A DNA stretch of 64,000 bases from an uncultured Dehalococcoidia bacterium (GCA_964574685.1 CAZNOI010000003.1:53408-117407); one strand, 5' to 3'. Shown: positions 427 through 28,500, counted from the stretch's first letter. A program made the numbers and translations. Notes: generated by a model from the sequence alone, not told the origin.

Positions 427-501
427 TCCCCGATAGCTCAACGGTAGAGCGGGCGGCTGTTAACCGCTAGGTTGTAGGTTCGAATCCTGCTCGGGGAGCC
501 A
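427..501 (+). tRNA. tRNA-Asn(GTT): tRNA-Asn (anticodon GTT), CCA encoded
   Basis: Hand-folded cloverleaf. Acceptor TCCCCGA pairs with TCGGGGA; D arm GCTC/GAGC; anticodon stem GGCGG/CCGCT; loop CTGTTAA; T arm GTAGG-TTCGAAT-CCTGC; discriminator G then CCA. Confidence 0.9.
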
Positions 502-2048
502 TTCTGTATGGAAGGTAAAACCCCCACCGTCTCACCGACCCGACCATCCGGAAACACAGGCAGCGTGTACCTCACCGTGACCTCGTCCCTGTCTACGTCG
601 ATTGCCTTGACGAACGACCGCAGGAAGGCCTTGCGCTCCATGATCTCCGAATTCTCCAGCAGGCTTCTGAGGTCCTCGACGTAGGCCTGCACCGCGCCCT
701 CGTCCGTCAGCTCGACCGCGTGGAACAGCAGCGACTCCTCGGCCTCCGATTTCGCGCGCTCCAGTTCCAGCTTGCGGTCGAACAGAGCGTTGATTCTGGA
801 CGACAACTGCGCTGGCTTGTACTCCCCCGTCTCCAGGGCGTCGTACAGCTTGCCCAGCCTCCCCTCGACCTCCCCCATTTGCAGTTGCAGCAGCTCGATT
901 CTCTCGTGCGCCTCCCTGGAAGCGCTCCGCAGCTCGTCATTGACCAGCCCCACCAGCTCGTGCAGGTTCTCATTCGTCAGGATGTGCTGCCTGATCTGGT
1001 CGACGATGAAGCCCTCAATTTTGGCCTTCGGCAGCAGCGGCGTGTCGCAGACATCGCGGCCGCGCCGTCGCGCGTTGCCGCACATGTAGTAGAAATGCCG
1101 CCCCGACTTCACCGCGTGGCCTATCATCGCAGCGCCGCAGTGCCGGCATCTTATCAGACCGCTCAGCGCGTACTCGCTGTGCACCGTACGCGGATGGCTG
1201 ACCCTGGGGGCGCGTTCGCCCAGCTTCTCCTGCGCCTTGGCGAACGTCTCAGCGTCGATGATTGCTGGCCAGGCATTCTCCACCCTCACCGGCGGGCTGT
1301 CGCCATTGCCCAGCTGCCTCTTCTTGCGCTTGTCCCACACCATGACTCCTGCGTATGCCTCATTCTGCAGGATGCCGTGTACAGAGGTTGTGCCCCACTT
1401 CCCGCCCGTCGCGCTGCCCACGCCGTCCCTGTTCAGCCCGCCCGCTATCTCCTTGAGGCCCCGCCCTTGCAGGCACTCCCTGAATATCCGCTGCACCACC
1501 GGAGCGGTCGCAGGGTCCGGCGCGAGCTTGCTTCTGGACATCTCTCCGTCCTGGACGCTCACCCTCTTGAACCCGTAGGGAGTGCGCCCCCCGTTGTGAT
1601 AGCCGCGCGACGCGCTTTCTCTCATTCCCCTGACCACGTCCTGCGACAGGTTGGCCGAATAGAACTCGTCGATGACCTCTATGATCCCTTCGAGGAGCTT
1701 CCCGGAAGGCGTGTCCTCCAGCGGCTCGCTCACCGAGATTACCTGCACGCCGTGCTTCCGCAGCAGGGACTTGTAGACGATTGAGTCCTCGCGGTTCCTC
1801 GCGAACCTGGAGAGCTTCCACACCAGGATAGTGTCGAACCGTGGTGGCTTTTGCCTCGCAGCGGCGATCATTCGCTTGAAGCCCGGCCTGTCGATGGAGC
1901 GCCCGCTCTCCGCCTCGTCGACGTACTCCCGCACCACCTCGTGCCCGTTGCGCGAGGCCCACTCCCTCAGCGCCTTGAGCTGCGCCGAGATCGACAGGTC
2001 CGTGTCCTGCCTGTCCGATGACACCCTTGCGTACAAAGCGACGTTCAT
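438..2048 (-). CDS. large serine recombinase / integrase
   Basis: N-terminal resolvase catalytic domain: MNVALYARVSSDRQ with Ser nucleophile, then ...TILVWKLSRFARN. Large C-terminal recombinase domain with Cys-rich zinc ribbon (CRHCG...YYMCG) and coiled coil. Start taken at MNV (2048), overlapping the upstream gene by ATGA. The 3' end overlaps the tRNA. Confidence 0.85.
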   Translation of the reverse strand: MNVALYARVSSDRQDTDLSISAQLKALREWASRNGHEVVREYVDEAESGRSIDRPGFKRMIAAARQKPPRFDTILVWKLSRFARNREDSIVYKSLLRKHGVQVISVSEPLEDTPSGKLLEGIIEVIDEFYSANLSQDVVRGMRESASRGYHNGGRTPYGFKRVSVQDGEMSRSKLAPDPATAPVVQRIFRECLQGRGLKEIAGGLNRDGVGSATGGKWGTTSVHGILQNEAYAGVMVWDKRKKRQLGNGDSPPVRVENAWPAIIDAETFAKAQEKLGERAPRVSHPRTVHSEYALSGLIRCRHCGAAMIGHAVKSGRHFYYMCGNARRRGRDVCDTPLLPKAKIEGFIVDQIRQHILTNENLHELVGLVNDELRSASREAHERIELLQLQMGEVEGRLGKLYDALETGEYKPAQLSSRINALFDRKLELERAKSEAEESLLFHAVELTDEGAVQAYVEDLRSLLENSEIMERKAFLRSFVKAIDVDRDEVTVRYTLPVFPDGRVGETVGVLPSIQNGSPSRIRTYNLAVNSRPLYR

Positions 2049-2893
2049 CGTGCCCCTCCGTTCCGTGGTAACGCGATCTCGCTGATGTCCCATGTCCCGT
2101 TGCCGTCCAATGCAGAATTGCCGCCGTGCACATAGCAGTAGTCTATTGAGTCGTAGTCGTTCATCTCCAACATTTCCACAGTCGCCTGCACCGCGTCGGC
2201 CTCTGCTCCCATGTAACCCGTAGTAAGCAGAATCAGGAACGTGCTTGTTGCGCCTCGCCGCTTGGCCTCTTCCAGTTGGTCGTCGGCATCTTTCACGTTC
2301 TTGTTGAACTGGTCAAACGCCTTACCGCTCAAGGCGTGTGTGTGGCCATTGTAGAACTGATTCACCGCATCTGGGTTCAGGAATGAGCCATCCTCCTTCC
2401 ACTTGCGCAGCGTCACCCAGAAGTCATGAGGCAGTCGGTCCGATAGCTTGCCCTGCAAGTCGCCAGTGAGGTCTACTTCATCACCCAAGGCCATATCTCT
2501 TGATCGCGTCGCAATGACATCACGGAGGGCATCCCGGAGCAGCATTCTGCCGTCCCTCCTCAAGTCCAGGGCGACTAGGTCGGACACGTTCATCGACCAG
2601 ATGAATGTGCCTGACAACTCTCCGGACACAGCCTCCGCCACTTCGCGGCATATCGCTTCCAGTAGCGACGTCTGTTCGTGCAGCGCCGCATCAGTTAATC
2701 TCTTGACCTCAATGGCTACCTCGTCTCCCGTACCGGTGTCCTTGGCTACCCAGTCCGGGTTCTTCTGGCCCTGCTCCGGTTGGCCGTGCACGTCTGTGTA
2801 GCGCCCTACGAGTTCGATCGCCGTGCCATGTGTCTCGTTGTGTAGCTGCAAGACCCGCTCTACATACGACCGCTGCCATTCCTCATCTGCCAT
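2045..2893 (-). CDS. hypothetical protein, translationally coupled upstream of the recombinase
   Basis: 283-aa ORF from MADEEWQRSYVERV... No recognisable motif. Its stop overlaps the recombinase start (ATGA). Confidence 0.5.
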   Translation of the reverse strand: MADEEWQRSYVERVLQLHNETHGTAIELVGRYTDVHGQPEQGQKNPDWVAKDTGTGDEVAIEVKRLTDAALHEQTSLLEAICREVAEAVSGELSGTFIWSMNVSDLVALDLRRDGRMLLRDALRDVIATRSRDMALGDEVDLTGDLQGKLSDRLPHDFWVTLRKWKEDGSFLNPDAVNQFYNGHTHALSGKAFDQFNKNVKDADDQLEEAKRRGATSTFLILLTTGYMGAEADAVQATVEMLEMNDYDSIDYCYVHGGNSALDGNGTWDISEIALPRNGGAR

Positions 2894-3064: not shown

Positions 3065-3310
3065 ATGGTCAAGGCACGCACACCCGTACATCTCAAGGTC
3101 AACAGCGTCGCCGTCTGGAACTACCTCACTAGGCGCAACCTCGCCCAGAACGAGCTTGCCAAGCAGCTCGGCATCAGCACTGGCTACATGGCCCAGCTCA
3201 TCAGCGGCAAGAGAAGCCCGTCGCCCGCGCTTCGCCGCCGCATGCTCGAAACACTCGCCCCTCTCTCCTTCGACGACCTCTTCCAGGTATCAGAGAGGGA
3301 CGCCCTGTGA
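3065..3310 (+). CDS. XRE/Cro-like HTH transcriptional regulator
   Basis: NLAQNELAKQLGISTGYMAQLISGKRSPS is a typical XRE HTH. Divergent from the recombinase operon, a classic int/regulator layout. Confidence 0.7.
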   Translation: MVKARTPVHLKVNSVAVWNYLTRRNLAQNELAKQLGISTGYMAQLISGKRSPSPALRRRMLETLAPLSFDDLFQVSERDAL

Positions 3311-3458
3311 CGACCCTGCGCCAGGAGACGACGCCCGCCCCCGCCCTCGCACACGACGAGCCGTACGAGGGACTTCGCATCCTCGCCCGCATGATCGCCC
3401 GCGCCCACCTCGCCCGCACCGAGATCCCCGCCGACACCGACGCCAGCGGAGACCGCTG

Positions 3459-4106
3459 ATGCCCCGCCGCTGGTCCAGCCCCCAGACCCGAGCCTGGGCG
3501 TACCGCTATCTTGTCCTTCGGGACGGCGAGAAATGCGCCCTCTGCGGCAAAGTCCCGAAGAACACTTATTCCCTCGACATTGACCACATTGATCGTGACC
3601 CGACTAACACCTATCCCCACAATCTGCGCCTTCTGTGCCGCTCGTGCAACGTAGCTGAGGAGAACCGCAAACGCCCAAGTGACGCTGTGTGTGTGGGTGT
3701 GAAAGGCAGGGAGAGGCCGGGGACGAGGATAGCCAGGGACGTGGTGCCGTACTACGAAGGAAGCCCGGAGATGCAGGCGAACGCCCTTTTCGAGGTGCGC
3801 TATCGCCACTGGCTGCAGGGCTTCATAGACGCCCGAGGCTTCATACCGAAGAAGGAGGCCGTGAACGCTGGGGCTGAGGCCGTGGGGTGCAGCCCCGCGA
3901 CCGCGGCAAGGTACCTGGCCAAGCTCACGTCCTATCTAGGCCCACTGAAGGAGACCAAGGACATGCTGGGAGAGCCGGTGGTGACATCGAGGGCGGACGA
4001 CGGAGATTGCCCCCCAGGCTGTCCGTCGCAGGGGGAGGAACTGGCCCGCCGCCGTGGTGGGCGTCTAGCAGAGCCATCAAGCGACGGTGGTGAGGCCGAC
4101 GACTGA
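3459..4106 (+). CDS. HNH endonuclease (phage-type)
   Basis: CALCGK...LDIDHIDRDPTNTYPHNLRLLCRSCN (CxxC...DH...N...CxxC). The listed ORF 3156-4106 has a low-complexity Arg/Pro N-terminus. The in-frame ATG at 3459 is the plausible start. Confidence 0.7.
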   Translation: MPRRWSSPQTRAWAYRYLVLRDGEKCALCGKVPKNTYSLDIDHIDRDPTNTYPHNLRLLCRSCNVAEENRKRPSDAVCVGVKGRERPGTRIARDVVPYYEGSPEMQANALFEVRYRHWLQGFIDARGFIPKKEAVNAGAEAVGCSPATAARYLAKLTSYLGPLKETKDMLGEPVVTSRADDGDCPPGCPSQGEELARRRGGRLAEPSSDGGEADD

Positions 4107-4273
4107 GCCGCCCCGAGGTGCAGGACGCCTCCTGCCGGTTCTTGTGAAGGAGGAACAAGCCATGAAGCTGCTCAAGACCGCAATCGAGACCCAGCGCTGG
4201 GACCTCGCGGCGCACACCCTTGTGCTGGGGGCCGCCCTGGTTCTGGACGCACGAAAGAACGGAGCGGGAAGGA

Positions 4274-4630
4274 ATGCCAAGACAGAAGCGAAAACGAGGC
4301 GCGCAGCCCGGAAACCGCAACGCGCTTAAGCACGGCTTCTACTCGGAGGCCCTGAAGGAAGCCGAGAAGCTTGAGCTGGAGGCCGCCCGTGACCTCGACG
4401 GCCTGGACGACGAGATCGCGCTCCTGCGGGTGAAGATCAAGTCCCTGGTGGCGCACGACTCCGACGACATCAAGCTGCTGATCGATGCCACCAGCACCCT
4501 CGCGCGCCTCCTGCGGACCCGCTACAACCTCCAGCAGCACCAGCACGACGGCATCCGCGACGCCATCACCAGCGTCCTCACCGACCTCGCCATCCCCCTC
4601 GGGGTCACCATAGCAAAGGGTACAATGTGA
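4274..4630 (+). CDS. putative phage terminase small subunit-like / DNA-binding protein
   Basis: N-terminus MPRQKRKRGAQPGNRNALKHGFYSE (basic stretch plus GNxNAxKHGxYS, as I recall it from phage TerS-like proteins), then a coiled-coil region. HNH next to TerS is a common phage packaging arrangement. Confidence 0.35.
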   Translation: MPRQKRKRGAQPGNRNALKHGFYSEALKEAEKLELEAARDLDGLDDEIALLRVKIKSLVAHDSDDIKLLIDATSTLARLLRTRYNLQQHQHDGIRDAITSVLTDLAIPLGVTIAKGTM

Positions 4631-4758: not shown

Positions 4759-5811
4759 ATGTTCACACTTCTCGACCTCTTCTGCGGAGCTGGCGGCATG
4801 ACGGCTGGCTTCGTCGATGCCGGATTCGTACCCATCTTCGCGGTGGACAGCTGCAGATGGTCCGTGGACACCTACAATGCCAATTTCGGACACCATGCCA
4901 CGTGCACGCCGGTCGAGGATGTTGAGCATTTCCCCAAAGCCGACGTCGTGATCGGTGGCCCCCCTTGCCAGGGATTCAGCAACCTTGGCAAGCGTCTTCC
5001 CTTTGACCCGAGGAATCAGCTGTGGCGCCACTTCGTACGCGCGATTGCGGCCGCGCAGCCCTTGTACTTCGTAATGGAGAACGTGCCAGAGCTGCTCAAG
5101 TCCGCCGAATATGAAGCGTTGAAAGCTGAGACCGAGGGCCTCGGGTATGAAGTTGACGGTCAGGTTCTGATCGCCGCCGACTACGGCATTCCTCAGACGC
5201 GCAAGCGTAGCTTCGTTATAGGCTCGCGCGTCGGGCCACCACTGTTCCCGGTGCCCACCCACCGGCGCCCTGACGAAGTCGACTTGTTCAATCTCCACCT
5301 GCCCCCCTGGCGGACGGTCAGGGACGCGATCGCGGACCTCCCACTTGTACCGACCGACTTCGACTGGCACATCGGCCGCAATCCTACTACGATGTCATTG
5401 GAGCGCTATCGTCACGTCCCCGAGGGAGGGAACCGATTCGATCTTCCCACGCACCTCCAGCCGCCGTGCTGGATACGGAAGACAAAGGGGGGAACCGACC
5501 TGTTCGGCCGGCTGTGGTGGGACAGACCTGCGTATACCATTCGGACTGAGTTCTTCAAGCCCGAGAAAGGACGCTACCTCCACCCCCAGGCCGACCGCCC
5601 GATAACCCATCGGGAGGCGGCGCGTTTCCAGACCTTCTCGGATGATTTCACGTTCTGCGGTTCGAAGATTGAGGTCGCCAAGCAGATAGGCAACGCGGTT
5701 CCGTCCCTGCTCGCTCGCAGGATCGCCGAGGCTGTTAGAGAAGCCGTTGGGGATGCTCAACTCACGAGTGCGTCGACTCAGCCCACTCGCGCAGTATGTC
5801 CAACGCAGTGA
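4759..5811 (+). CDS. DNA (cytosine-5)-methyltransferase
   Basis: Motif I LDLFCGAGGMTAGF, motif IV GGPPCQGFS, motif VI MENVPEL, motif VIII QTRKRSF, motif X GNAVPSLLA. Confidence 0.9.
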   Translation: MFTLLDLFCGAGGMTAGFVDAGFVPIFAVDSCRWSVDTYNANFGHHATCTPVEDVEHFPKADVVIGGPPCQGFSNLGKRLPFDPRNQLWRHFVRAIAAAQPLYFVMENVPELLKSAEYEALKAETEGLGYEVDGQVLIAADYGIPQTRKRSFVIGSRVGPPLFPVPTHRRPDEVDLFNLHLPPWRTVRDAIADLPLVPTDFDWHIGRNPTTMSLERYRHVPEGGNRFDLPTHLQPPCWIRKTKGGTDLFGRLWWDRPAYTIRTEFFKPEKGRYLHPQADRPITHREAARFQTFSDDFTFCGSKIEVAKQIGNAVPSLLARRIAEAVREAVGDAQLTSASTQPTRAVCPTQ

Positions 5812-6406
5812 GCTCCGGTGGCTGCCCGGTCTCTTTCGACCTTGCCTCCAATGCCTTCATGACCTTCTTCGGCAGGTGAACGACTAGCTGTAGTGGCAGC
5901 TTCTCAGGGAAGGCCAAGGGGCATTCGCTGCAGCTCTCTCTCCGGCATGTAGCACACTCGCGCCTCTTTCGGATGTTGCAGGATGTGCACGTTGTCTGCA
6001 GGTTGCTGTCATCATCAGCGCCGTAGCGAATGAGCGGCACCTTGTGGTCTATGGTGGGACTGGGCTTGCCGGGGTCGTCGCCTACCTGTACAAGACAGAG
6101 CTGACACACATACCGGTCACGTGCATATATCCGCCTTCGCTGCTTGGCGCTGGGATATCTGCGGACCAGACGAGGCCTCACCGGCTCGGCTGACGTCCTA
6201 CGATAGTGCCACTGGCCGTTTATGTTCGACCTATCGATGTCGAAGCCGTACTCATCGCGAAGCTGCGCGATACGACGACGGTAGTCGCTCTGCCCGCTTA
6301 TCTTCAGCATTTCCTCTCGAGACACCCACTCGCCTACCGGTAGTGCGTCCAGGAACGGCTGAAGATGCTGTGGTACCGGGTCGACCCCTTTGCGGTTGCC
6401 TCCCAA
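5762..6406 (-). CDS. HNH-family restriction endonuclease (R subunit of Type II R-M), convergent with the methyltransferase
   Basis: VCQLCLVQ...IDHKVPLIRYG...NLQTTCTSCN HNH core plus extra CxxC pairs. The 3' end overlaps the methyltransferase gene by 50 bp. The controller gene lies immediately upstream. Confidence 0.6.
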   Translation of the reverse strand: MGGNRKGVDPVPQHLQPFLDALPVGEWVSREEMLKISGQSDYRRRIAQLRDEYGFDIDRSNINGQWHYRRTSAEPVRPRLVRRYPSAKQRRRIYARDRYVCQLCLVQVGDDPGKPSPTIDHKVPLIRYGADDDSNLQTTCTSCNIRKRRECATCRRESCSECPLAFPEKLPLQLVVHLPKKVMKALEARSKETGQPPELTALDILREWAESTHS

Positions 6407-6408
6407 GT

Positions 6409-6648
6409 CTACTCTTCTCCCTCGACTGCCGACTGAAAGAACGACATCGACTTCCCGTATGCGCGGGCGAACTCCACCAACTCCACGAAGTCAACGCGTC
6501 GCTCGCCAGACTCGCACTTAGATATGTACGACTGAGACCTGCCAAGGCGCTTCGCGGCCTCTGCCTGAGTCAAACCGGCTTCCAGTCGCGCTCGCCGCAG
6601 GCTGGCGACAAGACTCTCGTATGATTGCCTGTCTTCACCCCGCTTCAT
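6409..6648 (-). CDS. controller (C) protein-like XRE HTH regulator of the R-M system
   Basis: 80 aa from MKRGEDRQS.... LEAGLTQAEAAKRLGRSQSYISKCESGERR is an XRE HTH. Its stop codon is 3 bp from the endonuclease start (C-R operon). Confidence 0.6.
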   Translation of the reverse strand: MKRGEDRQSYESLVASLRRARLEAGLTQAEAAKRLGRSQSYISKCESGERRVDFVELVEFARAYGKSMSFFQSAVEGEE

Positions 6649-6819
6649 GACCGTGTCTGCTCTGACCAAGAACGGCATTATCCCATTCTGGAATAGATAT
6701 CCCAAATTGGAATATCGCGCCCTCCGCATTGAGTCTCAGACACGCAGCGGGTCGTACCATGTGGTGTGAAATGCCGACAAGTGGCAGAATAGGGTGGACC
6801 ATGTCACCATGGGGGCCGC

Positions 6820-7521
6820 ATGACTGCTCAAGACAAGGGTGCACACGACCTGGACCAGCTTGCGGTTGACCAATTCCGGCAGGTTCTAGTCCTGTGGTTC
6901 CGCGCTCACGGTCGGGACCTTCCCTGGCGGCGCACACGTGATCCCTACGCGATTCTACTGTCGGAAGTGCTGTTACAGCGGACGCAGGCCTCTCAAGTCG
7001 CGGCCCACTTTGATTCGATCATCTCCGCAATTCCGACTATCACTTCACTCGCTGGTGCCTCGGAGCAAGACATCCGTGTAATCTTAGCGCCGCTGGGCCT
7101 TGCCAAACGCGCAGGTACGCTCCGCGCCATGGCGGTTGACATCATTGAGCACTACGATGGCTCTGTCCCGTCGAATGTCAACTCTCTTATGGCACTGCCC
7201 GGAGTCGGCCGCTACATCGCTTCGGCGACTGCCTGCTTCGCGTTCGGTGCCAAGACGCCGGTACTAGATGCGAACGTCATCCGTATCCTCAGCAGGTACT
7301 TCGCCGTGGCTTCCGCCATCAAACGCCCGCGATATGACAACCGGCTCTGGAGTGCAGCGGCAGACATCTTGCCGGAATCCGACTACGTCGATTTCAACAG
7401 AGCGCTGATTGACTTCGCTTCTCTTGTCTGCACCGGCCGACGGCCTGGCTGCCTTGACTGCCCACTACGTTCTACCTGCCGGAACGCCGTCGACGCCCTT
7501 ACCCGATTGTCTGAGACTTGA
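6820..7521 (+). CDS. EndoIII/MutY-family HhH-GPD DNA glycosylase with [4Fe-4S] loop; context suggests a Mig-type T:G mismatch glycosylase
   Basis: LPWRRTRDPYAILLSEVLLQRT; HhH LPGVGRYIASA; catalytic VLDANVIRILSR; C-x6-C-x2-C-x5-C (CTGRRPGCLDCPLRSTC). 233 aa, EndoIII-sized. Lies adjacent to the C5-methyltransferase. Confidence 0.75.
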   Translation: MTAQDKGAHDLDQLAVDQFRQVLVLWFRAHGRDLPWRRTRDPYAILLSEVLLQRTQASQVAAHFDSIISAIPTITSLAGASEQDIRVILAPLGLAKRAGTLRAMAVDIIEHYDGSVPSNVNSLMALPGVGRYIASATACFAFGAKTPVLDANVIRILSRYFAVASAIKRPRYDNRLWSAAADILPESDYVDFNRALIDFASLVCTGRRPGCLDCPLRSTCRNAVDALTRLSET

Positions 7522-7591
7522 CAAGACGGGCCTCCTGGCGTATTTACTTACATGTTCGGCACCGGTTCATCGCCGACACAAGGAGACAACC

Positions 7592-9556
7592 ATGACCGAA
7601 GAGGACAGGGCGCTCTACCTGAGGTTCCATGGTCGGATACTAGAGCATTTTGGCATCCAGACTTACCAAAGCCCGGTTGCCGCCATCGCGGAGCTTGTGG
7701 CGAATTGCTGGGACGCGGATGCAAGTGAAGTGCGAATAGTGCTTCCGGCGAACTTGGGGGACAATGCCACCATCGAGATACTGGACGACGGTATCGGCAT
7801 GACATTCGATGAGTGTCAAGAACGCTACCTAAGCGTTGGTCTGAACCGGAGGGCCAATGACCCGGATGAACGTTCGCCGGAGAAGAGGAGACCGATCTTG
7901 GGCCGCAAGGGAATAGGCAAGTTCGCTGGCTTCGGCATTGCAGAAACCATGCGCATCTCAACGACCAGCAAGCAGACGGGCGAGGCGACCGTGTTCGAGC
8001 TTCGTCTACCTGACCTAATCAGCGATGAATACGTAAGCACCAACGATAAGCCTGTCGACATCGTTGAGCATAGGTCTCCCGATGACCAACGCAAGTTGGA
8101 GCACGGCACTGTTGTGACACTATCGGGGCTCAAGCTCGGAAAGACTCCGTCGCCCGACGCGTTCGCCAAGAGTATGGCTCGTCGTTTTCTGCTCCTCCAG
8201 CAGCAGGCCGACTTCCGGGTGCTTGTCAATGATCAGGAGTTGCCCAAATCCTTCGACTTGCAGGACGTGCAATACGTGTTTCCCCGCGACTACAAATCTG
8301 AGGAGATGCCCGCCGATCTTGAGACACAAGACATTGAACTCTATGGCGTGGAGAAGCTATCCAACGACCGTAAGATCCGATGGCAGTTCTGCTTCCACAA
8401 TGATACGATTGACGACGAGGAGCTGCAGGGTATTGCTATCTTCGCCAAGGGGAAGCTCATCCAGGCCCCATTCCTTTTCAATCTCAGCGGTGGTCTCGGC
8501 GGTCAACACGGGGTAGCCTATCTGTCTGGTCAAGTCCAGGCGGACTACCTTGACTCGCTCTCCGTGGACCTTGCCGCTACGGAGCGTCAGAGGGTCAACT
8601 GGGAGCATAGAGAGAGCGCCCCACTGCTGGAGTGGGGGCAGACCAGGATCAAGGAGCTCCTCAGGACTTGGCAAGACCGCCGAGGTGAGCAGAGAACTCG
8701 CATGCTTGATCAACGCGTGTCCGGTTTCTCATCGAGGTTGGGCAGACTACATTCACCTGAGCAGCGAACGGTCTCCAAAGCTTTGAGGAAGCTTGCCCAA
8801 GTTTCCACACTGAATGATGCACAATTTGAAGACCTCGGAAACGCGGTACTCACCGCGTGGGAAGAGGGACGCCTCAGAGGACTCATTGACCAGATTGCCC
8901 AAGCTCAGACCATGTCCGAGGAAGACCTCCTCAGCGTCCTCCTGGAGGCACAGGCGCTCACGGCTCTCAACGTGGCAGAAGCAGTCCGAACCAAGCTCCA
9001 GACTGTGGCTGGCCTGATACAGCGTATAGAACGCCGTGAGCTCGAAACAGCTGTACGCGACTACATAGCGAAGAACCCTTGGCTTATAGCTCCCCAATGG
9101 GAAACCTTCCGCAAGGAGACTACTGTTAAGCACCTCCTAGATCAGGCCGCCGGGCAGGTCGGTTTCACCGACAACGAGTTCAACGGTCGTGTCGACCTCG
9201 CACTCGCGAGCGGCAATCACCTGCTTGTTCTCGAATTCATGCGACCAAGCCTTACCCTCAATTGGGACCATCTACAACGCTTCGAGAGATACGTCCTGAA
9301 TATACGGGGCAACATAGACGCCAACACCGCTGGCGTTTTCAGGCGCGTCACTGGTTACGTAATAGCAGACAACCTTGAGGCTCGGTCGGATAATCGCGCC
9401 AAGATTACTTCTATGGTCAAAGAAGACATGTACGCCCTCGATTGGCGCTCCCTCTTCAGCCAGGCCCTTGCCAAGTGGCAGGAGTTCCTTGACATACTCG
9501 TCTCACGGGCTCCGGAGGACGAGCGTCTGCAGGCTCTACTCCAGCCTCCCGACTAA
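7592..9556 (+). CDS. MORC-like GHKL (HATPase_c_3-type) ATPase with long C-terminal region
   Basis: ELVANCWDADASEVRI (N box), IEILDDGIGMT (G1), GRKGIGKFAGFGIA (G2-like). C-terminal part contains NPWLIAPQW...GRVDLAL...LLVLEFMRPS, which resembles a restriction-endonuclease-like core. RBS AGGAG before ATG 7592. Confidence 0.75.
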   Translation: MTEEDRALYLRFHGRILEHFGIQTYQSPVAAIAELVANCWDADASEVRIVLPANLGDNATIEILDDGIGMTFDECQERYLSVGLNRRANDPDERSPEKRRPILGRKGIGKFAGFGIAETMRISTTSKQTGEATVFELRLPDLISDEYVSTNDKPVDIVEHRSPDDQRKLEHGTVVTLSGLKLGKTPSPDAFAKSMARRFLLLQQQADFRVLVNDQELPKSFDLQDVQYVFPRDYKSEEMPADLETQDIELYGVEKLSNDRKIRWQFCFHNDTIDDEELQGIAIFAKGKLIQAPFLFNLSGGLGGQHGVAYLSGQVQADYLDSLSVDLAATERQRVNWEHRESAPLLEWGQTRIKELLRTWQDRRGEQRTRMLDQRVSGFSSRLGRLHSPEQRTVSKALRKLAQVSTLNDAQFEDLGNAVLTAWEEGRLRGLIDQIAQAQTMSEEDLLSVLLEAQALTALNVAEAVRTKLQTVAGLIQRIERRELETAVRDYIAKNPWLIAPQWETFRKETTVKHLLDQAAGQVGFTDNEFNGRVDLALASGNHLLVLEFMRPSLTLNWDHLQRFERYVLNIRGNIDANTAGVFRRVTGYVIADNLEARSDNRAKITSMVKEDMYALDWRSLFSQALAKWQEFLDILVSRAPEDERLQALLQPPD

Positions 9557-9589: not shown

Positions 9590-10426
9590 ATGGCCTACGT
9601 AATCCTCACTCAGAGAGTCCCTCCCGACGACTACCGGGACGAGATCGGCACACTGTACAACTACCCTCGGCGATACTGGAGGCGACTCTACACAGGCGAT
9701 CGCATGATCTATCACCAGCCGCGCGATCGTTCAAACGGAGGAATGGTCTATTTCGGATGCGGTGTAGTCGGAGACATCCAACCCGACCCTCACGACCCAA
9801 ACCGGCGTAACGCAGAGATCGTCGACTACACAGCCTTTGAAAGGCACGTTCCCGTCACGCGTCGGGGCCGGTTTCTTGAGCCTGCCATCAATAGGCAGGT
9901 CGACATGGTAGGCAACGCAGTTCGCACTATTGATGAACCGACCGCTCTCGCCATCCTGAGTGCTTCTCATACGCAGCCCCCATGGGCTTGGCTGCCCACC
10001 GGTGGGACCGGGGCACCACCATCGTCGCCTACTAACGAGGCGGACCTGCGGCGTGCTATTGACACCTTCGACCAGCACTATGCAAGCCTGGCCCCCGAGC
10101 GCCGTGCGCGCACGCTATCGACGCTTCATCGCCCATCATCCATAGGGGCATACCTGAAGCAGCTCTACGGCACCAGATGTCGCATCTGCGGCGTGGACGG
10201 TTTCCTGCAGAGAATCGGGACCTCCTATGCCGAGATTCACCACGTCGATGAGCTCAGCACTGAACACCCCGGAGTTCTCGGCACGCAGAACATCTTGATC
10301 CTCTGTCCTACCTGTCACAGAAAGCTCCATTTCGCGAACGTCACTGTCATTCCCACTTCCTTGGGCTGGGACATGACCATCAATGGTCGGCATGTCGCCG
10401 TCCAAAGGATGCATAGCCCCGCCTGA
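9590..10426 (+). CDS. HNH endonuclease with about 190-aa N-terminal domain of unknown type (possibly modified-base/DNA binding)
   Basis: C-terminal CRICGVDG...AEIHHVDELS...NILILCPTCH HNH motif. N-terminal region YVILTQRV...YNYPRRYWRRL...MVYFGCGVV has no motif I can name. Starts 34 bp after the GHKL gene, same strand. Confidence 0.7.
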   Translation: MAYVILTQRVPPDDYRDEIGTLYNYPRRYWRRLYTGDRMIYHQPRDRSNGGMVYFGCGVVGDIQPDPHDPNRRNAEIVDYTAFERHVPVTRRGRFLEPAINRQVDMVGNAVRTIDEPTALAILSASHTQPPWAWLPTGGTGAPPSSPTNEADLRRAIDTFDQHYASLAPERRARTLSTLHRPSSIGAYLKQLYGTRCRICGVDGFLQRIGTSYAEIHHVDELSTEHPGVLGTQNILILCPTCHRKLHFANVTVIPTSLGWDMTINGRHVAVQRMHSPA

Positions 10427-22460: not shown

Positions 22461-22510
22461 GACGTATCAATCGAATACCGCCCGTTTGCATGAGGGCAAG
22501 GGAGTCTGTG

Positions 22511-25500
22511 ATGACGCGCAAATCGAGAAGGACGACAAAGGGTAGCAGGATCGTGTTGGCCTGCGTGCTGACATTCGCTCTGCTGGTTGTCGGCCTGCCG
22601 GCGGCGAGCGCGGCGGTGCCCGGCGGACCATCTGAGGGAGATGCCGATCCTGCAGTCGACTCCGGCGGAGCGGAAGTGCTGGTGCTCGACTCTGATGGGT
22701 CCTGGACTGTCCTGGACGTGAAGGTACGTGCCGTTGATGAAGAGGAGACCCCGGCGGGCGGGCAGGTCTTCCAGCGATTGTCTATCGCCGGCCGAGAGAC
22801 TACGCTTGAGGTTGGCAAGCCGCAACTGCCCGCAATCAGGGAGTTGGTGGCAATACCGGATGGGGCGACTGTTACGGCGTCTGTCGTCGATTCATCCTTC
22901 ACAACCACTCGCGACTATCATGTTTTCCCCGTGCAGGAACCCGAGGTTGATGGGCAGCCCACGCCCGGCTTCACCATTGACAGCGAGTTCTATTCGATCG
23001 ACGCCTTCTACCCGAGAGACCTTCTCGAGGTGGATGAGCCCGGCATATGGCGCGACATCACCGTTGCAGGAGTGCAGATCAATCCGGTTCAGTTCAACCC
23101 CGCTACGGGTGAATTGCGGGTCTACGACCGCGTCCGGATCAGGCTGGACTATGCGGGCGGCAGCGTGGCTCCCAAGAAAGTAGCGCCTGCATTCGCGCGC
23201 ATGTATCAGAGCGCCATCCTGAACTACGACTCCCTGGACGTAAACGTGGACTACGGCTCATATGAAGACCAGGTAGGGACGCATGACGCCGCGGCCGCTC
23301 TTCCGGAAGTGGAAGGGTTGGGGCTTGACGGTACCCCCTATGATTCCTCGGTGAAGCTGCTCTCCCTCAGGCACGAGTCCTGCTCCGACTTCAGTACACT
23401 GTTGCCGCTGCTCGAGTGGCACAAGAGCGAAGGACTGCCATACATCTCGGCGGTATACCACTCGACCCCTACGGCAAGCAGCTTGAAGAGCACAATCGCG
23501 AGTTACTACGATGACTACCCCGAACTCGAGTACGTCCTGCTGGTGGGCGACACAGCGTACCTTCCCTGGCAGCAGAGCTGGGGGCCGAACGACACGCCGG
23601 GCGACCACTGGTATGCGTGCATCACGGGCGGCGCGACCCCCGACCTCTATGCGGACGTCGGTCTCGGACGGCTCTCGGTTACCAGTGACGCGCAGCTCCA
23701 GCAGCAGGTTGACAAGATACTCGACTATGCCAAGAGCCCACCGGCCGGAAGCTGGGTGAACCGTGCGATCCTTATGGCACATAAGGAAGCAGCTCCCGGC
23801 AAGTATCAGGGGTGCTGTGAAGACATACGAACCGCCACCTACAGCGATTCGTTCACCTTCTGGACGGACTACGGTGCGGCAGCCGCGCAGGGAGGCGACG
23901 ACGCTACGAACGCCGACGTTACGGCAGACTTGAACTCCGGCGTTGGGATTCTCAACTACAGAGGGCATGGCGGGGACGGCGACCCTTATGGGCCGCCGTA
24001 TGGCGAGTTCTGGGGAACCAACTGGAACACGTCATTCGAGGAATACACAGTCACTGACGCGCACGGCCTCACGAACGGCGACAACGCTCCGGTTGTCTTC
24101 AGCATATCGTGCACCAATGCCTGGCTGGATGCTGCCAATGAGGTGCTTGGCGAAGCGTTCGTGAGGGACAGCGATTCCGCCGTCGCATTCCTGGGGGCTT
24201 CCCGGCCTTCGTACACCACTCCGAATCACGAGTTCGACAAGAACCTGTTTGACGCCATAGGCAACGAGCATATCACCAGGCTGGGCTGGATACTGAACGA
24301 CGCCAACGCCGAGCTGGTGGCTGCGTACGGCTCAGGTTCCTACTATATGGACAACGTCAGGATGTACCTGTGGCTGGGCGACCCGGCTCTTGACCTCTGG
24401 ACGAGCAGCCCGCAGTCCCTGGTGGTCGACCATCCCGCTCAGGTAACAACAAGCATGACGGTAGCCGTGCAGGACGTCATGACCAACCCGGTGCCGAACG
24501 CGCTGGTCTGCCTGCACAAGTACGGCGATATATACGCGTACGCCTATACCAATACCATGGGCGAGGCGAGCTTCAGCTTCAATCCGAGCACCGACGGGAT
24601 GATGGATGTGGTTGTGACGAAGCACAACTACTACCCGTATGAGGGGCAGACAGAGGTCGTACCTCTGGAGAATGCCATAACCAACATCGCGTTCACCCCC
24701 TCCCCACCCGCCTCGCTATGCAACGGCGAGCATGTGGACATCTCGTTCGACTACTCGACCGACGAGGAAGACGGGGTCCGGATACAAATGACACCATTTA
24801 CTGAGGGCTCTCCTACCCCGGGTTACGGATGGAGCGGTTCGACAGTGTACCCGAAGGGCGAAGGAAGCGGTAGCACCTGGTTCACGATCCTCTCGGGTGA
24901 TACCGCCGTAGACCAGGTCAGGTTCCAGATGAAGACAGCCGACTGGAACACTGTGCTGATCGAGTTCTTTGTCCCGGTCGCCTATACATTCGGGCATTCA
25001 GTGCACGACACAACTATGGATCCCATATCGCCCGCCGACCTCATCTTCGGCGAGCACGTCGACATCGGTTTCGACTACTACACGTGTGAGACGGACGGGG
25101 TAGTGATCTTCGTGAAGCCCTATACGGGCGGGCCACCGACGCCCAACTACCTGGCAAGTGGCTCGGACGTGTACCCGAAGGGCAGCGGGACCGGAAGCGG
25201 GTGGTTCACCGTCACCTCGGGCGTCACGACCGTTGACCAGGTCCATGTTGAGATGATGACCGCCGACCAGACGACCACGCTTCTGGACTTCCTCGTGGAT
25301 GTCTCATACCAGTATGCGGGGCACCCGGATATATGGGTAGAGCCGACCGGTATCGAGGTCGAGTTGTACCCGGACTCCTACTCCAGCAGCATACTTGAGA
25401 TCGGAAATACGGGGGAGGGCGCCCTCGAATACAACATCGCGGACGTGGAGACTACCGGAGGGCCGTTCATCGAGTGGGTGGCCGTGACTCCGGACCCCCT

Positions 25501-28500
25501 TCCTGCCGGCGACCCCGGGACCCTGACGGCCGAGGTGCATGACCCCGACGGTCTCGGCGACATATCCTGGGTCAAATGGTGGGTGAACGAAAGCCCGACC
25601 GACGGGCTGCATATGTACGACGATGGGATGCACGGAGACGGCGCCGCCGGGGACGGCGTCTATGGGTCAAACGTCTACGGCGCCACGTTGTACGGTTCCG
25701 AGATAGGGATGACCTTCCAGGCGGGCGATTCGACCGGCAAACTTGGGCACAGGTCCTATGTCCTGTCGCTGGCCGACAGTGGACGTGGGGCGGCGGTCGG
25801 CCTTGGAGCCTCCGGCAGGGAGATGGTCGAGGCGGAGGATACGACGGAGGAGGATGCGGCACCGGGTGAGGAAGCGAACGACCAGGTATCATCTACGGGC
25901 TCGAATGTCGGGGACGCCTCGGATGCGCCCGGTTTCCCGGACATCCATTTCGACTATGATCTGCAGGCGGCTACAGGTGACATACAGTGCGTGGGCGTCG
26001 AGTTCGATGGGACGAACTTCTATGTTACGGGCGCCAACTCGGGCAGCCCCAACATGGTCTACGTGCTTGACCGTAAGGGCAACCCGGCAGGCAGCTTCGC
26101 CCAGGACCCCGCGTATTCAGCCTCGACGTGGGGTTGGCGTGATCTTGCCTGGGACGGAAGCTATCTCTACGGCAGCGAGAGCTCCAGCATAGTCCAGTTC
26201 GAGACCGACGGTACGGTTGTCGGCACGATACCCGGCCCCATCAGTCCATGCCGGGGTCTCGCCTACGATCCGGCCGGCGACCACTTCTGGACGGCGGGTT
26301 TCGGCACGAATGTATATGAGATAGACCGGTCAGGAACGGTCGTCAACGCGTTCTCGAACCCCTACAACGTCTACGGGCTGGCCTGGGACGATGTGTCTCC
26401 TGGCGGGCCGTGGCTCTGGGTCTTCGCCCAGGAAGGCTCTCCAGCGGTTACCGCATATCAGTTCGACCCGGTGGCGGGGGCGTACACGGGGCTGAGCTTC
26501 GTGAGCCAGGGCGAAGTCGCGGGCGGCGCCTGCTTCACTACGGAGCTGGAGCCCCCATATGGCATCCTGGCTGTAGTCAGCCAGGGATACCCCGATGCCC
26601 TCCTGGGGCATGAGATATGCCAGCTCGACTGCGATTGGCTGGACGAATGGCCGATGAGCGGCACTGTGCCGCTGAGCCAGACACCGGCGTACGACGAGAT
26701 CGAGGTCGGCATAGACAGTACAGGCCTCGCGCCCGGGGAATACACAGCCGAAGTGCACGTGGCCAACAACGATCCCTCGGGCAATCCGACGATTGTGCCG
26801 GTGAAGCTGACGGTCCTGCCGGAACCCAATATCTGGACGAACCCCGACGTGCTGCAGGTCGAGATGTTGCCGTATTCCGAGTGGTTGGGGACAGTCACGA
26901 TCGGCAACAGCGGTGACGGCACTCTGGACTACAACGTGGTCGATATCGAAACGACCGGCAGTCCATACTTCGAGTGGGTGACGCAGGCCCCCGACCCTCT
27001 TCCGTCTGCTTCAAGCGGGAAGATAGAGGCAATGGTCGGTGACCCGGACGGTCTGGCTGATATCGACTACGTCAAGGTATGGTTCACCGAGCATCCGTCG
27101 ATATGGACTTGGATGCTGGACGACGGCGTGGCTCCCGATGTCACAGCGGGGGACGGCGTCTATACCTGTGTGACGCCCGGAACGAAACCCAGCGAGGATT
27201 TCGGCCTGCTGCTTCAGGCCAGAGACATGGCCGGAAACCTCGGTCACACGTCGCTCGAATTCCATGTGGACTTCGGCGGCGGGCCGATGTCTTCGACCGC
27301 CAACCCCAGGGAGTGGGATGGCGGGGCGTGGAACATCGATATCGGCGAGCGTCCGAGGGCGGGCGACGGAGCAGGCAGTGGCGTAGCGGATGAAGTAGCG
27401 GCCCCGGCAGCTCCTGGGGCGGGCGCGGTGAGCGACGGTGAGGGCACCGACGCACCCGGCTTCTCCGACATCCGCTTCTCATATGACGTCGAAGGAGCTT
27501 CGGGCGATTATCAATGCCTCGGAGTCGAGTTCGATGGGACCAACTTCTACGTGACAGGCGGCAACTCCGGTGGAGGCGCCGGTGATCCGAACCAGGTTCA
27601 TATGTTTGACAGGGCCGGCACCTATGTCGGCTCGTTCCCTCAGGACCCGACGTACTCCACATCGAGCTGGGGCTGGCGTGACCTGGCGTGGGACGGCGCG
27701 TACCTGTACGGCAGTGAGAACTCGGACATCGTCCAGTTCGGGACCAACGGCACGGTGACCGGGACTATAGCCGGACCCATCAACCCCTGCAGGGGTCTCG
27801 CCTATGACCCGGCGACGGACCACTTCTGGACGGCTGGTTTCGGCACGGACATCTACGAGATAGACCGTTCGGGGATTGTGGTCAAGTCCTTCGTCAATAC
27901 CTACAACGTGTATGGGCTTGCGTGGGATGATGTCAGCCCCGGGGGGCCGTGGCTCTGGGTGTTCTCGCAGGATGGCTCTCCTGCCGCCACGGTGCGCCAG
28001 TTCGACCCGGTAACCGGCGTGTACACGGGTGTATCGTTCTCCAGCGTCGGGACCTACGCCGGGGGTGCCTGCTTCGTTACAGATGTCGAGCCGCAATACG
28101 GTATTCTGGTAGCCCTGAACCAGGGATACCCGGATATGCTGGTGGGGCATGAGATATGCCAACTGAACTGCCCATGGCTTGGCGCGGCACCCACGCCGGG
28201 AACCGTAGGGCCGGGCAGTATGGGAACCCTTGACGTGGTTGTGAATTCGTCCGGTCTGGATCGGGGCGAACACACCGCAGAGATGTACATCGAGAGCAAC
28301 GACCCGGATGAGGATCCCACGATAATCCCGGTACAGCTTACAGTGTTGCCCTCGCCTGACATAGACGTTGAGCCAAGATCAATCGACATAGAGCTGCCGC
28401 CCGATACGATTTGGAACGCACCCATAGATGTATCCAACGATGGGGATGACGGATCGACGCTCAAGTACCAGATGGTCGACACCGAGACAACGGGTGGACC

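Follow-up and report, generated by a model that had tools for sequence, protein, structure and literature searches.

Organization of the restriction-modification genes

The stretch of DNA considered here, termed the window, comprises 64,000 nucleotides from an uncultured Dehalococcoidia bacterium (GCA_964574685.1 CAZNOI010000003.1:53408-117407). Attention was directed at positions 4759-7521, a region that a preliminary description, made from the sequence, had proposed to contain a Type II restriction-modification (R-M) system under the control of a C protein, together with an adjacent DNA glycosylase that would repair the mismatches arising from cytosine methylation. Four open reading frames (ORFs), respectively encoding a C5 cytosine DNA methyltransferase, an HNH nuclease, a regulator of the XRE type and a glycosylase, were found to be intact and to occupy the coordinates first assigned to them. 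Moreover, the same genes were called by an independent gene caller on two metagenome contigs carrying the exact locus.

The methyltransferase (350 aa; positions 4759-5811, plus strand) matches the whole of the PF00145 profile (E = 1.4e-59) and scores 172 bits against TIGR00675, for which the cutoff is 100.65. Its motifs, earlier listed as being all present, were indeed complete, namely I (FCGAGG), IV (PCQ), VI (ENV), VIII (QTRKR), IX (REAARFQTF) and X (GNAVP). As also described previously, the gene is convergent with that encoding the HNH Type II restriction endonuclease (214 aa; 5762-6406, minus strand), such that the 3' ends of the two overlap by 50 bp. The nuclease is recognized by PF01844 (E = 1e-8) and by the REBASE-derived PADLOC Type II restriction endonuclease model PDLC03478 (E = 9.7e-41; residues 10-186), and presents intact catalytic residues (D120-H121 and N135) and the zinc ligands of the CxxC (101-104) and CxxCN (140-144) motifs. 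From the N-terminus, the protein is arranged as a winged helix-turn-helix (wHTH)-like DNA-binding domain, an HNH/zinc core, a Cys-rich tail and a ribbon-helix-helix-like tail. The C-terminal 65 residues (5762-5960), containing a second Cys cluster (CATC...CSEC) and the ribbon-helix-helix-like segment and encoded in part within the overlap with the methylase gene, correspond to a tail that is not found in the relatives from two of the loci considered below (L170 and L174).

Relatives of the HNH nuclease were sought in an exhaustive HMMER search, which returned 76 cluster representatives at E <= 1e-10. A word-indexed homology search had given just one match to this protein, at 29% coverage, and a tblastn search of plasmids gave matches to the HNH motif only. 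The two nearest full-length relatives, P0250 and P0251, are 43 and 38% identical to the window nuclease, respectively, and the gene encoding each converges on and overlaps a C5 methyltransferase gene, with the methyltransferase adjoining P0250 (locus L182) being 52% identical to that of the window. The nearest relatives of the window methylase itself (62-65% identity) are partnered with the same HNH family at five loci (L170, L174, L179, L172 and L180). The HNH proteins encoded at these loci are distant relatives of the window nuclease (26-39% identity) that share the wHTH-like domain and match the same PADLOC model. The convergent overlap of the nuclease and methylase genes is, furthermore, kept in L170, L174, L179, L182 and the contig encoding P0251.

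When the target recognition domain (TRD; residues 155-283) of the window methylase was compared to those of other methylases, identity was 65-71% for the HNH-paired methylases of L170, L174, L179 and L172 (58-62% across the conserved N-terminal core), 55% for a methylase paired with an NgoMIV-type nuclease (L003) and 18-39% for methylases paired with restriction enzymes of the GHKL type. The closeness of this domain to those of the HNH-paired enzymes argues for the methylase being the cognate of the HNH nuclease; as judged from their sequences, the two are a conserved cognate R-M pair.

The best PADLOC match of the window methylase was to DruM. Assignment of the locus to Druantia type II, in which DruM is accompanied by the helicase DruE together with DruF and DruG, was, nonetheless, rejected, given that no large helicase is encoded in the island upon which the module lies. 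The nearest HNH/methylase pairs, namely those of L182 (1-6615) and of the P0251 contig, adjoin a gene encoding a DEAD-box helicase of ~1930 residues and additional nuclease genes, and the Druantia-II-like setting of these distant relatives may be the reason for the match of the window methylase to DruM.

Identity of the glycosylase and its linkage to C5 methylases

The glycosylase (233 aa; 6820-7521, plus strand) matches PF00730 (E = 2e-11) and contains E49, D150, the helix-hairpin-helix motif LPGVGRY and, as noted in the preliminary description, a [4Fe-4S] cluster (C204-x6-C211-x2-C214-x5-C220), which proved to be invariant in the clade. A sequence search of the PDB gave E-values of 9e-44 for MutY and 4.6e-40 for Mig.MthI (1KEA), as compared to ~1e-10 to 1e-13 for EndoIII. 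As such, the assignment of the protein to the EndoIII family held in so far as it is an HhH-GPD [4Fe-4S] glycosylase, yet the branch to which it belongs is that of MutY and Mig (~1e-40 to 1e-44) and not EndoIII proper. Identification as endonuclease III (Nth) was indeed rejected, considering the weak scores obtained with EndoIII entries of the PDB, the score of 71 against the Nth family TIGR01083 (cutoff, 211.7) and the absence of the catalytic Lys of EndoIII (Lys120), the position of which is occupied by Tyr132. Against the NCBIfam MutY equivalog TIGR01084, the protein scored 193.8 relative to a cutoff of 286.5, with only the catalytic domain being covered. Because the glycosylase ends directly after the Fe-S cluster, 13 residues past it, the NUDIX-like domain that recognizes 8-oxoguanine (8-oxoG) is missing and, unlike what is seen with the long homologues, no match to PF14815 was obtained, leaving the core of MutY only. 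The PADLOC 'Type II nicking endonuclease' model PDLC03398, which is derived from REBASE and spans 221 positions, the length of Mig.MthI, was matched at 5.6e-41. Finally, an AlphaFold 2 (AF2) model of the glycosylase (predicted local distance difference test score, pLDDT, of 93.2) was matched by Foldseek to both 1KEA and MutY with a probability of 1.0, the best two-way template modelling (TM) score (0.85/0.91) being obtained with 1KEA.

The residues lining the base pocket were next compared, with the Mig.MthI sequence having first been checked against its PDB entry. In Escherichia coli MutY, V45 and Q182 are key to adenine specificity; the equivalents in Mig.MthI, the characterized mismatch repair glycosylase of this clade, are A50 and L187, with F27, R47 and Y126 also being used around the thymine (PMC2714593). 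At the positions corresponding to F27, R47, A50, the Tyr wedge of MutY (Leu in Mig.MthI), Y126 and L187, the window glycosylase presents L34, R54, A57, L94, Y132 and R194, respectively. Three of the five thymine-pocket positions are thus Mig-like, the consensus of the clade at these five being F, R, A, Y and R/W. At the same six positions, all 24 long MutY homologues present L (M in three), Q, V (I in one and S in one), Y, Y and Q/E, while all of the short homologues from Nitrospira present L, Q, V, Y, Y and Q. In a neighbour-joining tree, the window glycosylase was placed among short proteins bearing the Mig signature, with Mig.MthI being found in the same broad group and the MutY-type groups lying apart. 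The protein did not, therefore, cluster with orthologues of a housekeeping type that keep a common genomic position, since the housekeeping-looking Nitrospira branch is separate and carries the MutY signature. The glycosylase is most likely a Mig-type enzyme, predicted to excise T (and U) opposite G.

The branch in question is made up of a conserved short glycosylase (~240-300 aa) bearing every residue of the MutY signature (Val, Gln and Tyr wedge), found in Nitrospira and relatives (L013-L089). No C5 methylase was encountered within 10 kb of the genes encoding these proteins, in which the C-terminal domain is seemingly absent. A scan of a genome collection with the glycosylase clade returned mostly these MutY-signature genes of Nitrospira, which served as a negative control.

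To describe the linkage of such glycosylases to C5 methylases, 169 fetched loci were scanned with a hidden Markov model (HMM) built from five C5 methylases, and counts were taken for loci that had been de-duplicated at 90% identity and for which 1 kb or more of upstream sequence was available. A C5 methyltransferase was encoded within 700 bp of the glycosylase at 23 of the 37 Mig-type loci and within 5 kb at 31 of the 37, whereas at the 28 MutY-type loci none was found at either distance (Fisher p = 3e-8 at 700 bp and 1e-12 at 5 kb). At Mig-type loci, the methylase gene usually lies directly upstream and on the same strand; in the window, the two genes are ~1 kb apart. At one locus (L110; 6612-8702, plus strand), a single ORF of 697 residues comprises both a C5 methyltransferase (residues 74-426) and a Mig-type glycosylase (residues 494-610 and beyond), thus representing a natural fusion.

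Examination of the loci encoding the closest relatives of the window methylase revealed the same set of genes. In L170 and L174, the methylase and convergent HNH nuclease genes are followed by a glycosylase gene behind that of the nuclease, while in L179, a methylase gene, a convergent HNH gene and a divergent glycosylase gene reproduce the layout of the window without the regulator. L172 is similarly arranged, with the HNH ORF being present but uncalled. In L180 (6001-8100) and L181 (6001-7604), the genes for orthologous methylases (TRD 67-69% identical) are instead followed by a gene encoding Vsr (PF03852) in place of the glycosylase, and L180 also encodes a wHTH-HNH nuclease from the family of the window enzyme (7095-7685). 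That Vsr is found in the position of the glycosylase offers the strongest indirect evidence for the glycosylase doing the job of Vsr. The view of the protein as an analogue of Mig and Vsr is accordingly upheld, both by the methylase-linked clade to which it belongs and by its replacement by Vsr in orthologous systems. On the other hand, the combination of genes, earlier thought uncommon, is in fact recurrent, since the closest methylase relatives carry the same methylase/HNH/glycosylase set, with only the added controller being seen nowhere else. What is atypical here is only this addition and the orphan GHKL nuclease encoded downstream. No paper on the linkage of Mig-type glycosylases and methylases in Bacteria was found in the literature collection searched.

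The helix-turn-helix protein and the surroundings of the module

The small XRE helix-turn-helix (HTH) protein (6409-6678, minus strand) matches HTH_31/HTH_3 with an E-value of ~1e-14. As the preliminary description had it, the gene directly precedes that of the HNH nuclease, with its TAG stop codon (6411-6409) lying 2 nt before the TTG start codon of the nuclease gene (6406) and GGAG being found ~10 nt upstream; the narrow gap and a Shine-Dalgarno sequence that falls within the HTH coding region indicate co-translation with the nuclease. A repeat search revealed two tandem 17-bp operator-like dyads at 6679-6714, reading TATTCCA-N3-TGGGATA on the coding strand of the HTH gene, at 6679-6695 and 6698-6714 and thus 19 bp apart from centre to centre. 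These are the sole two matches in the 64 kb when up to two mismatches are allowed, relative to a chance expectation of 0.30. Embedded in both boxes is a sigma-70-like promoter (6677-6705, minus strand), recognized by consensus match only and comprising a -35 element (TTGGGA), a 17-nt spacer and an extended -10 element (TG-GATAAT), such that the boxes cover both -35 and -10. No other minus-strand promoter-like site was found between 4500 and 10700. Of the candidate start codons for the HTH protein (at 6729, 6678, 6669 and 6648), one of the three downstream of 6729 is probably used, with 6669 or 6648 being the likely choice, since the dyads coincide with the promoter. A perfect 8-nt inverted repeat (CGTGTCTG / CAGACACG, at 6652-6659 and 6737-6744) is centred almost exactly on the box pair, although by itself this repeat is statistically not compelling.

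Relative to proven C proteins, the HTH protein gave E-values of 6.7e-4 (C.BclI), 0.013 (C.AhdI) and up to 0.1, together with 1.8e-4 against the PADLOC Control_protein model. Because such similarity is weak, the case for a controller is made by position, coupling and operators, and it is quite likely that the protein serves as the controller of the R-M system. The proposal of C-protein control thus stands with respect to the classical position of the gene and the dyad operators at its own promoter, with family membership, as assessed by sequence, being weak.

Two genes overlooked in the preliminary description were identified directly downstream of the glycosylase gene and on the same strand. 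The first (7592-9556, plus strand) encodes a 654-residue paraMORC3-like homologue of GHKL-ATPase restriction enzymes that matches the NCBIfam BbrUII/HgiDII family NF050001 (7e-88) at 296 bits, under the cutoff of 550. The protein is composed of GHKL and S5 domains and a C-terminal nuclease of the restriction endonuclease (RE) fold, with the ATPase motifs being intact; the ExK motif of the nuclease reads EF[MV]R in this subfamily and EFMR in the window protein. It aligns over its full length and without gaps to a relative (L116; 62% identity) encoded in an operon together with a methylase and a glycosylase. Close GHKL relatives are likewise encoded beside Mig-type glycosylases at L138 (GHKL followed by glycosylase; 55%), L100, L012 and L008, and a C5 methyltransferase gene abuts those of seven of the eight annotated plasmid GHKL homologues. 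The second gene (9590-10426, plus strand) encodes a 278-residue HNH nuclease (HNH278), the HNH domain of which resembles those of McrA and TagI. The gaps separating the glycosylase, GHKL and HNH278 genes measure 71 and 34 bp, respectively, and no terminator-like site was found between them. No second methyltransferase is encoded within the 64-kb window, where the type of methylase that accompanies the GHKL relatives is absent.

In the case of HNH278, PDB matches to EcoKMcrA (6GHC; 9.6e-8) and TagI (6GHS; 3.7e-3) were confined to the HNH region, with PADLOC mREase_IV being matched at 3.5e-8. EcoKMcrA and TagI are both 5-methylcytosine-dependent enzymes. Residues 1-190 of HNH278 gave no Pfam match, and the N-terminal ~150 residues are without recognizable family. 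For the N-terminal domain, no relative was found in a scan of viral contigs, while a tblastn search of plasmids gave one weak match (residues 14-122; a DUF3883 protein). No homologue of HNH278 was encountered in any fetched locus, and the single-sequence AlphaFold model of the protein was unusable (pLDDT 39).

The module sits on a serine-recombinase island of ~10.6 kb, the left end of which is marked by a tRNA-Asn gene (427-501, plus strand) detected by ARAGORN. The adjacent large serine recombinase gene (438-2093, minus strand), the product of which contains Resolvase, Recombinase and Zn_ribbon_recom domains and is CcrB-like (3.9e-50), overlaps the tRNA-Asn gene in antisense by 64 nt at its 3' end. 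No repeat of at least 11 nt of the tRNA-Asn region was found elsewhere in the window, the expected outcome given that the enzyme of the island is a serine recombinase. Between this gene and the R-M module (3065-4630), phage-like remnants encoding an XRE repressor, an HNH endonuclease (~3462-4106) and a 136-residue fragment resembling a small terminase subunit were noted, which suggests a satellite or degraded prophage as the backbone of the island. To the right of the island, from ~11.3 kb, ordinary metabolic and signalling genes are found. Further along the window (22490-32761) lies a giant ORF of 3423 residues containing peptidase C25 (gingipain-like), propeptide, CARDB and DUF4350 domains. 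Those window proteins that were looked up were singletons at 90% identity in a collection of 15 billion proteins, and the most under-represented palindromes in the window were GATC, CTAG, GGCC and CAGCTG.

Interpretation and comparison with known systems

The locus is likely to be a mobile Type II R-M module with a built-in glycosylase for mutation avoidance. In such a module, the C5 methyltransferase would methylate cytosines in its target site and the convergent HNH nuclease would cut the same site when unmethylated. The nuclease would be translated from a transcript shared with the small HTH protein, which is expected to bind the two dyad operators over its own -35 and -10 elements, so that expression of the nuclease would be delayed, and then capped, once the island enters a new cell. 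5-Methylcytosine deaminates to thymine, and the resulting T:G mismatch is invisible to uracil glycosylase. The glycosylase, seemingly the catalytic core of MutY without the domain that reads 8-oxoG and with a Mig-like base pocket, would excise T (and U) opposite G, presumably as a monofunctional enzyme given that no Lys is found at the EndoIII K120 position. The apurinic/apyrimidinic (AP) endonuclease, polymerase and ligase of the host would then restore the C:G pair, with the methyltransferase re-methylating the site. The same job is performed by Mig.MthI beside M.MthTI and by Vsr beside Dcm. In this account, the gene content, the integrity of the motifs, the conserved pairing, the linkage counts, the natural fusion and the replacement by Vsr were observed directly, while the specificities of the enzymes, the monofunctional chemistry and the timing by the controller are inferred.

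Several points weigh against this interpretation. Two of the five pocket positions of the glycosylase differ from those of Mig.MthI, with L34 being found rather than Phe and R194 rather than Leu187, the Arg at the latter position occurring in neither Mig.MthI nor MutY. In overall score and superposition, the MutY core and Mig are equally close to the protein, and the tree was of the neighbour-joining type and carries no bootstrap support. To our knowledge, Mig.MthI, which is 33% identical to the window protein, is the only member of the clade for which biochemical data exist. Similarly, generic XRE proteins outscore C proteins as matches of the HTH protein (3f6w, 1e-12), the operator boxes are unlike the canonical C-box (GACT...AGTC) and the HTH gene was found in none of the relatives of the module among the fetched loci. 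Palindrome under-representation in the window gave no clue as to the target site (GTCGAC, z = -0.6; GCCGGC, z = -2.2). Lastly, the allegiance of the glycosylase is ambiguous because its gene is directly upstream of, and co-stranded with, that of the GHKL restriction enzyme homologue.

Other explanations were thus considered. Were the glycosylase a housekeeping enzyme of the MutY/Nth type that repairs oxidative damage and is a neighbour of the R-M genes by chance, it could be understood why MutY gives the top NCBIfam and PDB scores, why relatives are annotated as 'A/G-specific adenine glycosylase' in the source records and why a MutY-type residue is found at L34. This very improbable explanation was, however, rejected, given that signature residues, domain content and gene neighbourhood all speak against it: none of Val45, Gln182, the Tyr wedge and the C-terminal 8-oxoG domain is found in the protein, which has Tyr132 in place of the catalytic Lys of EndoIII and falls below the MutY equivalog cutoff, while its gene lies on a mobile island and its clade is methyltransferase-linked, as MutY-signature genes (0/28) are not. 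It is harder still to credit that the glycosylase is not a repair enzyme at all but a restriction effector that excises bases at unmethylated sites, as does R.PabI. The concept of a restriction glycosylase is established (PMC10273834), PADLOC places the glycosylase family under REase_II and, for many methylase-glycosylase pairs, no evident nuclease gene was seen in the flanking sequence sampled. Known restriction glycosylases are, nonetheless, of an unrelated fold (HALFPIPE), Mig.MthI acts in mismatch repair, the gene is interchangeable with that of Vsr, a repair nuclease, and it accompanies bona fide nucleases, be they of the NgoMIV type (L003) or of the HNH type (L170, L174 and L179). As for the HTH protein, the best matches being to an uncharacterized XRE protein (with C proteins at 7e-4 to 0.1), the unusual sequence and 19-bp spacing of the boxes and the existence of related methylase-HNH-glycosylase modules that do without it would all agree with a generic autorepressor or a regulator of the island, with the HNH nuclease being expressed constitutively by read-through. 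The 2-nt coupling of the genes and the Shine-Dalgarno sequence within the HTH gene, the paired dyads over the promoter and the weak but specific matches to PADLOC Control_protein speak against this, and such a regulator is considered unlikely.

The final alternative extends the reading of the locus as a mobile R-M module with its own repair glycosylase rather than replacing it. Here, the island would be a recombinant of two R-M systems, in which the single methylase and the glycosylase also serve the GHKL enzyme, so that one methylase would guard against the HNH and GHKL enzymes, two nucleases with no relation to each other. The C-boxes, situated between the divergent HTH-HNH and glycosylase-GHKL-HNH278 units, may coordinate both. 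Such a possibility, doubtful but the one to be taken most seriously, is in line with the close GHKL relatives found directly beside Mig-type glycosylases, with the GHKL gene being of full length, gap-free relative to L116 and intact in its ATPase motifs, with the short gaps and missing terminator-like sites between the genes and with there being just one methyltransferase in 64 kb. Yet the TRD of the window methylase shares no more than 36-39% identity with those of methylases partnered with GHKL enzymes, as compared to 65-71% for HNH-paired methylases. Shared specificity is therefore not supported, and the idea that the methylase is cognate to the GHKL enzyme was rejected. Moreover, the window glycosylase is nearer to those of HNH and NgoMIV-type modules (54%) than to that of L116 (43%), and the GHKL enzyme may be inactive here or may have its cognate methylase encoded beyond the window. 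The strongest form of the idea, namely that recombination of two methylase-glycosylase-nuclease systems has yielded one methylase and one glycosylase common to two active, unrelated nucleases of the same or nested specificity, with the operators timing both operons, appears improbable.

The locus is best filed as a divergent Mig-type glycosylase accessory of a C5 R-M system, which would work as do Mig.MthI/M.MthTI and Dcm-Vsr, and hence joins Mig.MthI as a further case, here from a bacterium and carried on an island, without overturning current understanding. More broadly, the comparative data point to Mig-type glycosylases as widespread companions of R-M systems based on C5 methylases, interchangeable with Vsr and at times fused to the methylase. 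The automatic label of 'A/G-specific adenine glycosylase' is, for members of this clade, probably mistaken. The locus, furthermore, provides a test case of how mobile methylases make up for the mutations that they cause and of whether one methylase can cover two different nucleases.

With E. coli and Geobacillus MutY, the glycosylase shares the catalytic fold, the Fe-S cluster, the Glu and Asp residues and ~36% identity. MutY, however, has a C-terminal 8-oxoG domain, Val45, Gln182 and a Tyr wedge, where the window protein has no such domain and Ala, Arg and Leu, respectively; MutY was, moreover, never methyltransferase-linked in the sample, and its NCBIfam equivalog cutoff is not reached by the window protein. 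As in C-controlled R-M systems (PvuII, AhdI, Esp1396I and BclI), an XRE gene is coupled upstream of that of the nuclease, two dyads are found at its own promoter and the methylase gene is transcribed separately. The window differs in that the HTH protein is only marginally similar to C.BclI and C.AhdI, in the sequence and geometry of the operators, which cover both -35 and -10, and in the nuclease being of the HNH rather than the PD-(D/E)XK type. Restriction enzymes of the paraMORC/GHKL type are found with cytosine methylases and Vsr, and the paraMORC3 architecture has been described (Iyer, Abhiman and Aravind, 2008). The downstream protein resembles these enzymes (BbrUII/HgiDII) in having a GHKL ATPase and a C-terminal RE-fold domain and in that the genes of its relatives abut those of C5 methylases and of a T:G repair enzyme, yet is unlike them in being accompanied by a glycosylase and not Vsr, in lacking its own type of methylase, in presenting EFMR for ExK and in scoring below the family cutoff.

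Parallels are also found among systems that correct T:G mismatches. As with Dcm-Vsr and with Vsr in R-M operons, correction is predicted to take place at the sites of the methylase itself, and the gene is found in the same genomic position. Vsr is, however, an endonuclease of the PD-(D/E)XK type that nicks 5' of the T and is unrelated in fold and chemistry, whereas the window glycosylase would excise the base and leave the remaining steps to base-excision repair. Relative to the Mig.MthI/M.MthTI/R.MthTI system of the Methanothermobacter plasmid pFV1 (1KEA), the window module differs in its serine-recombinase island beside tRNA-Asn, as opposed to an archaeal plasmid, and in its HNH nuclease under a controller-like HTH protein, while the glycosylase, of predicted specificity only, shows limited identity and L34 and R194 in place of F27 and L187. 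At the same time, both systems pair a short [4Fe-4S] HhH-GPD protein corresponding to the core of MutY only (221 and 233 aa) with an adjacent C5 methyltransferase belonging to a Type II R-M system, and both glycosylases present the catalytic Glu and Asp, a Tyr at the position of the EndoIII Lys and the Ala and Arg of A50 and R47, with the modelled fold of the window protein matching 1KEA (TM 0.85/0.91).

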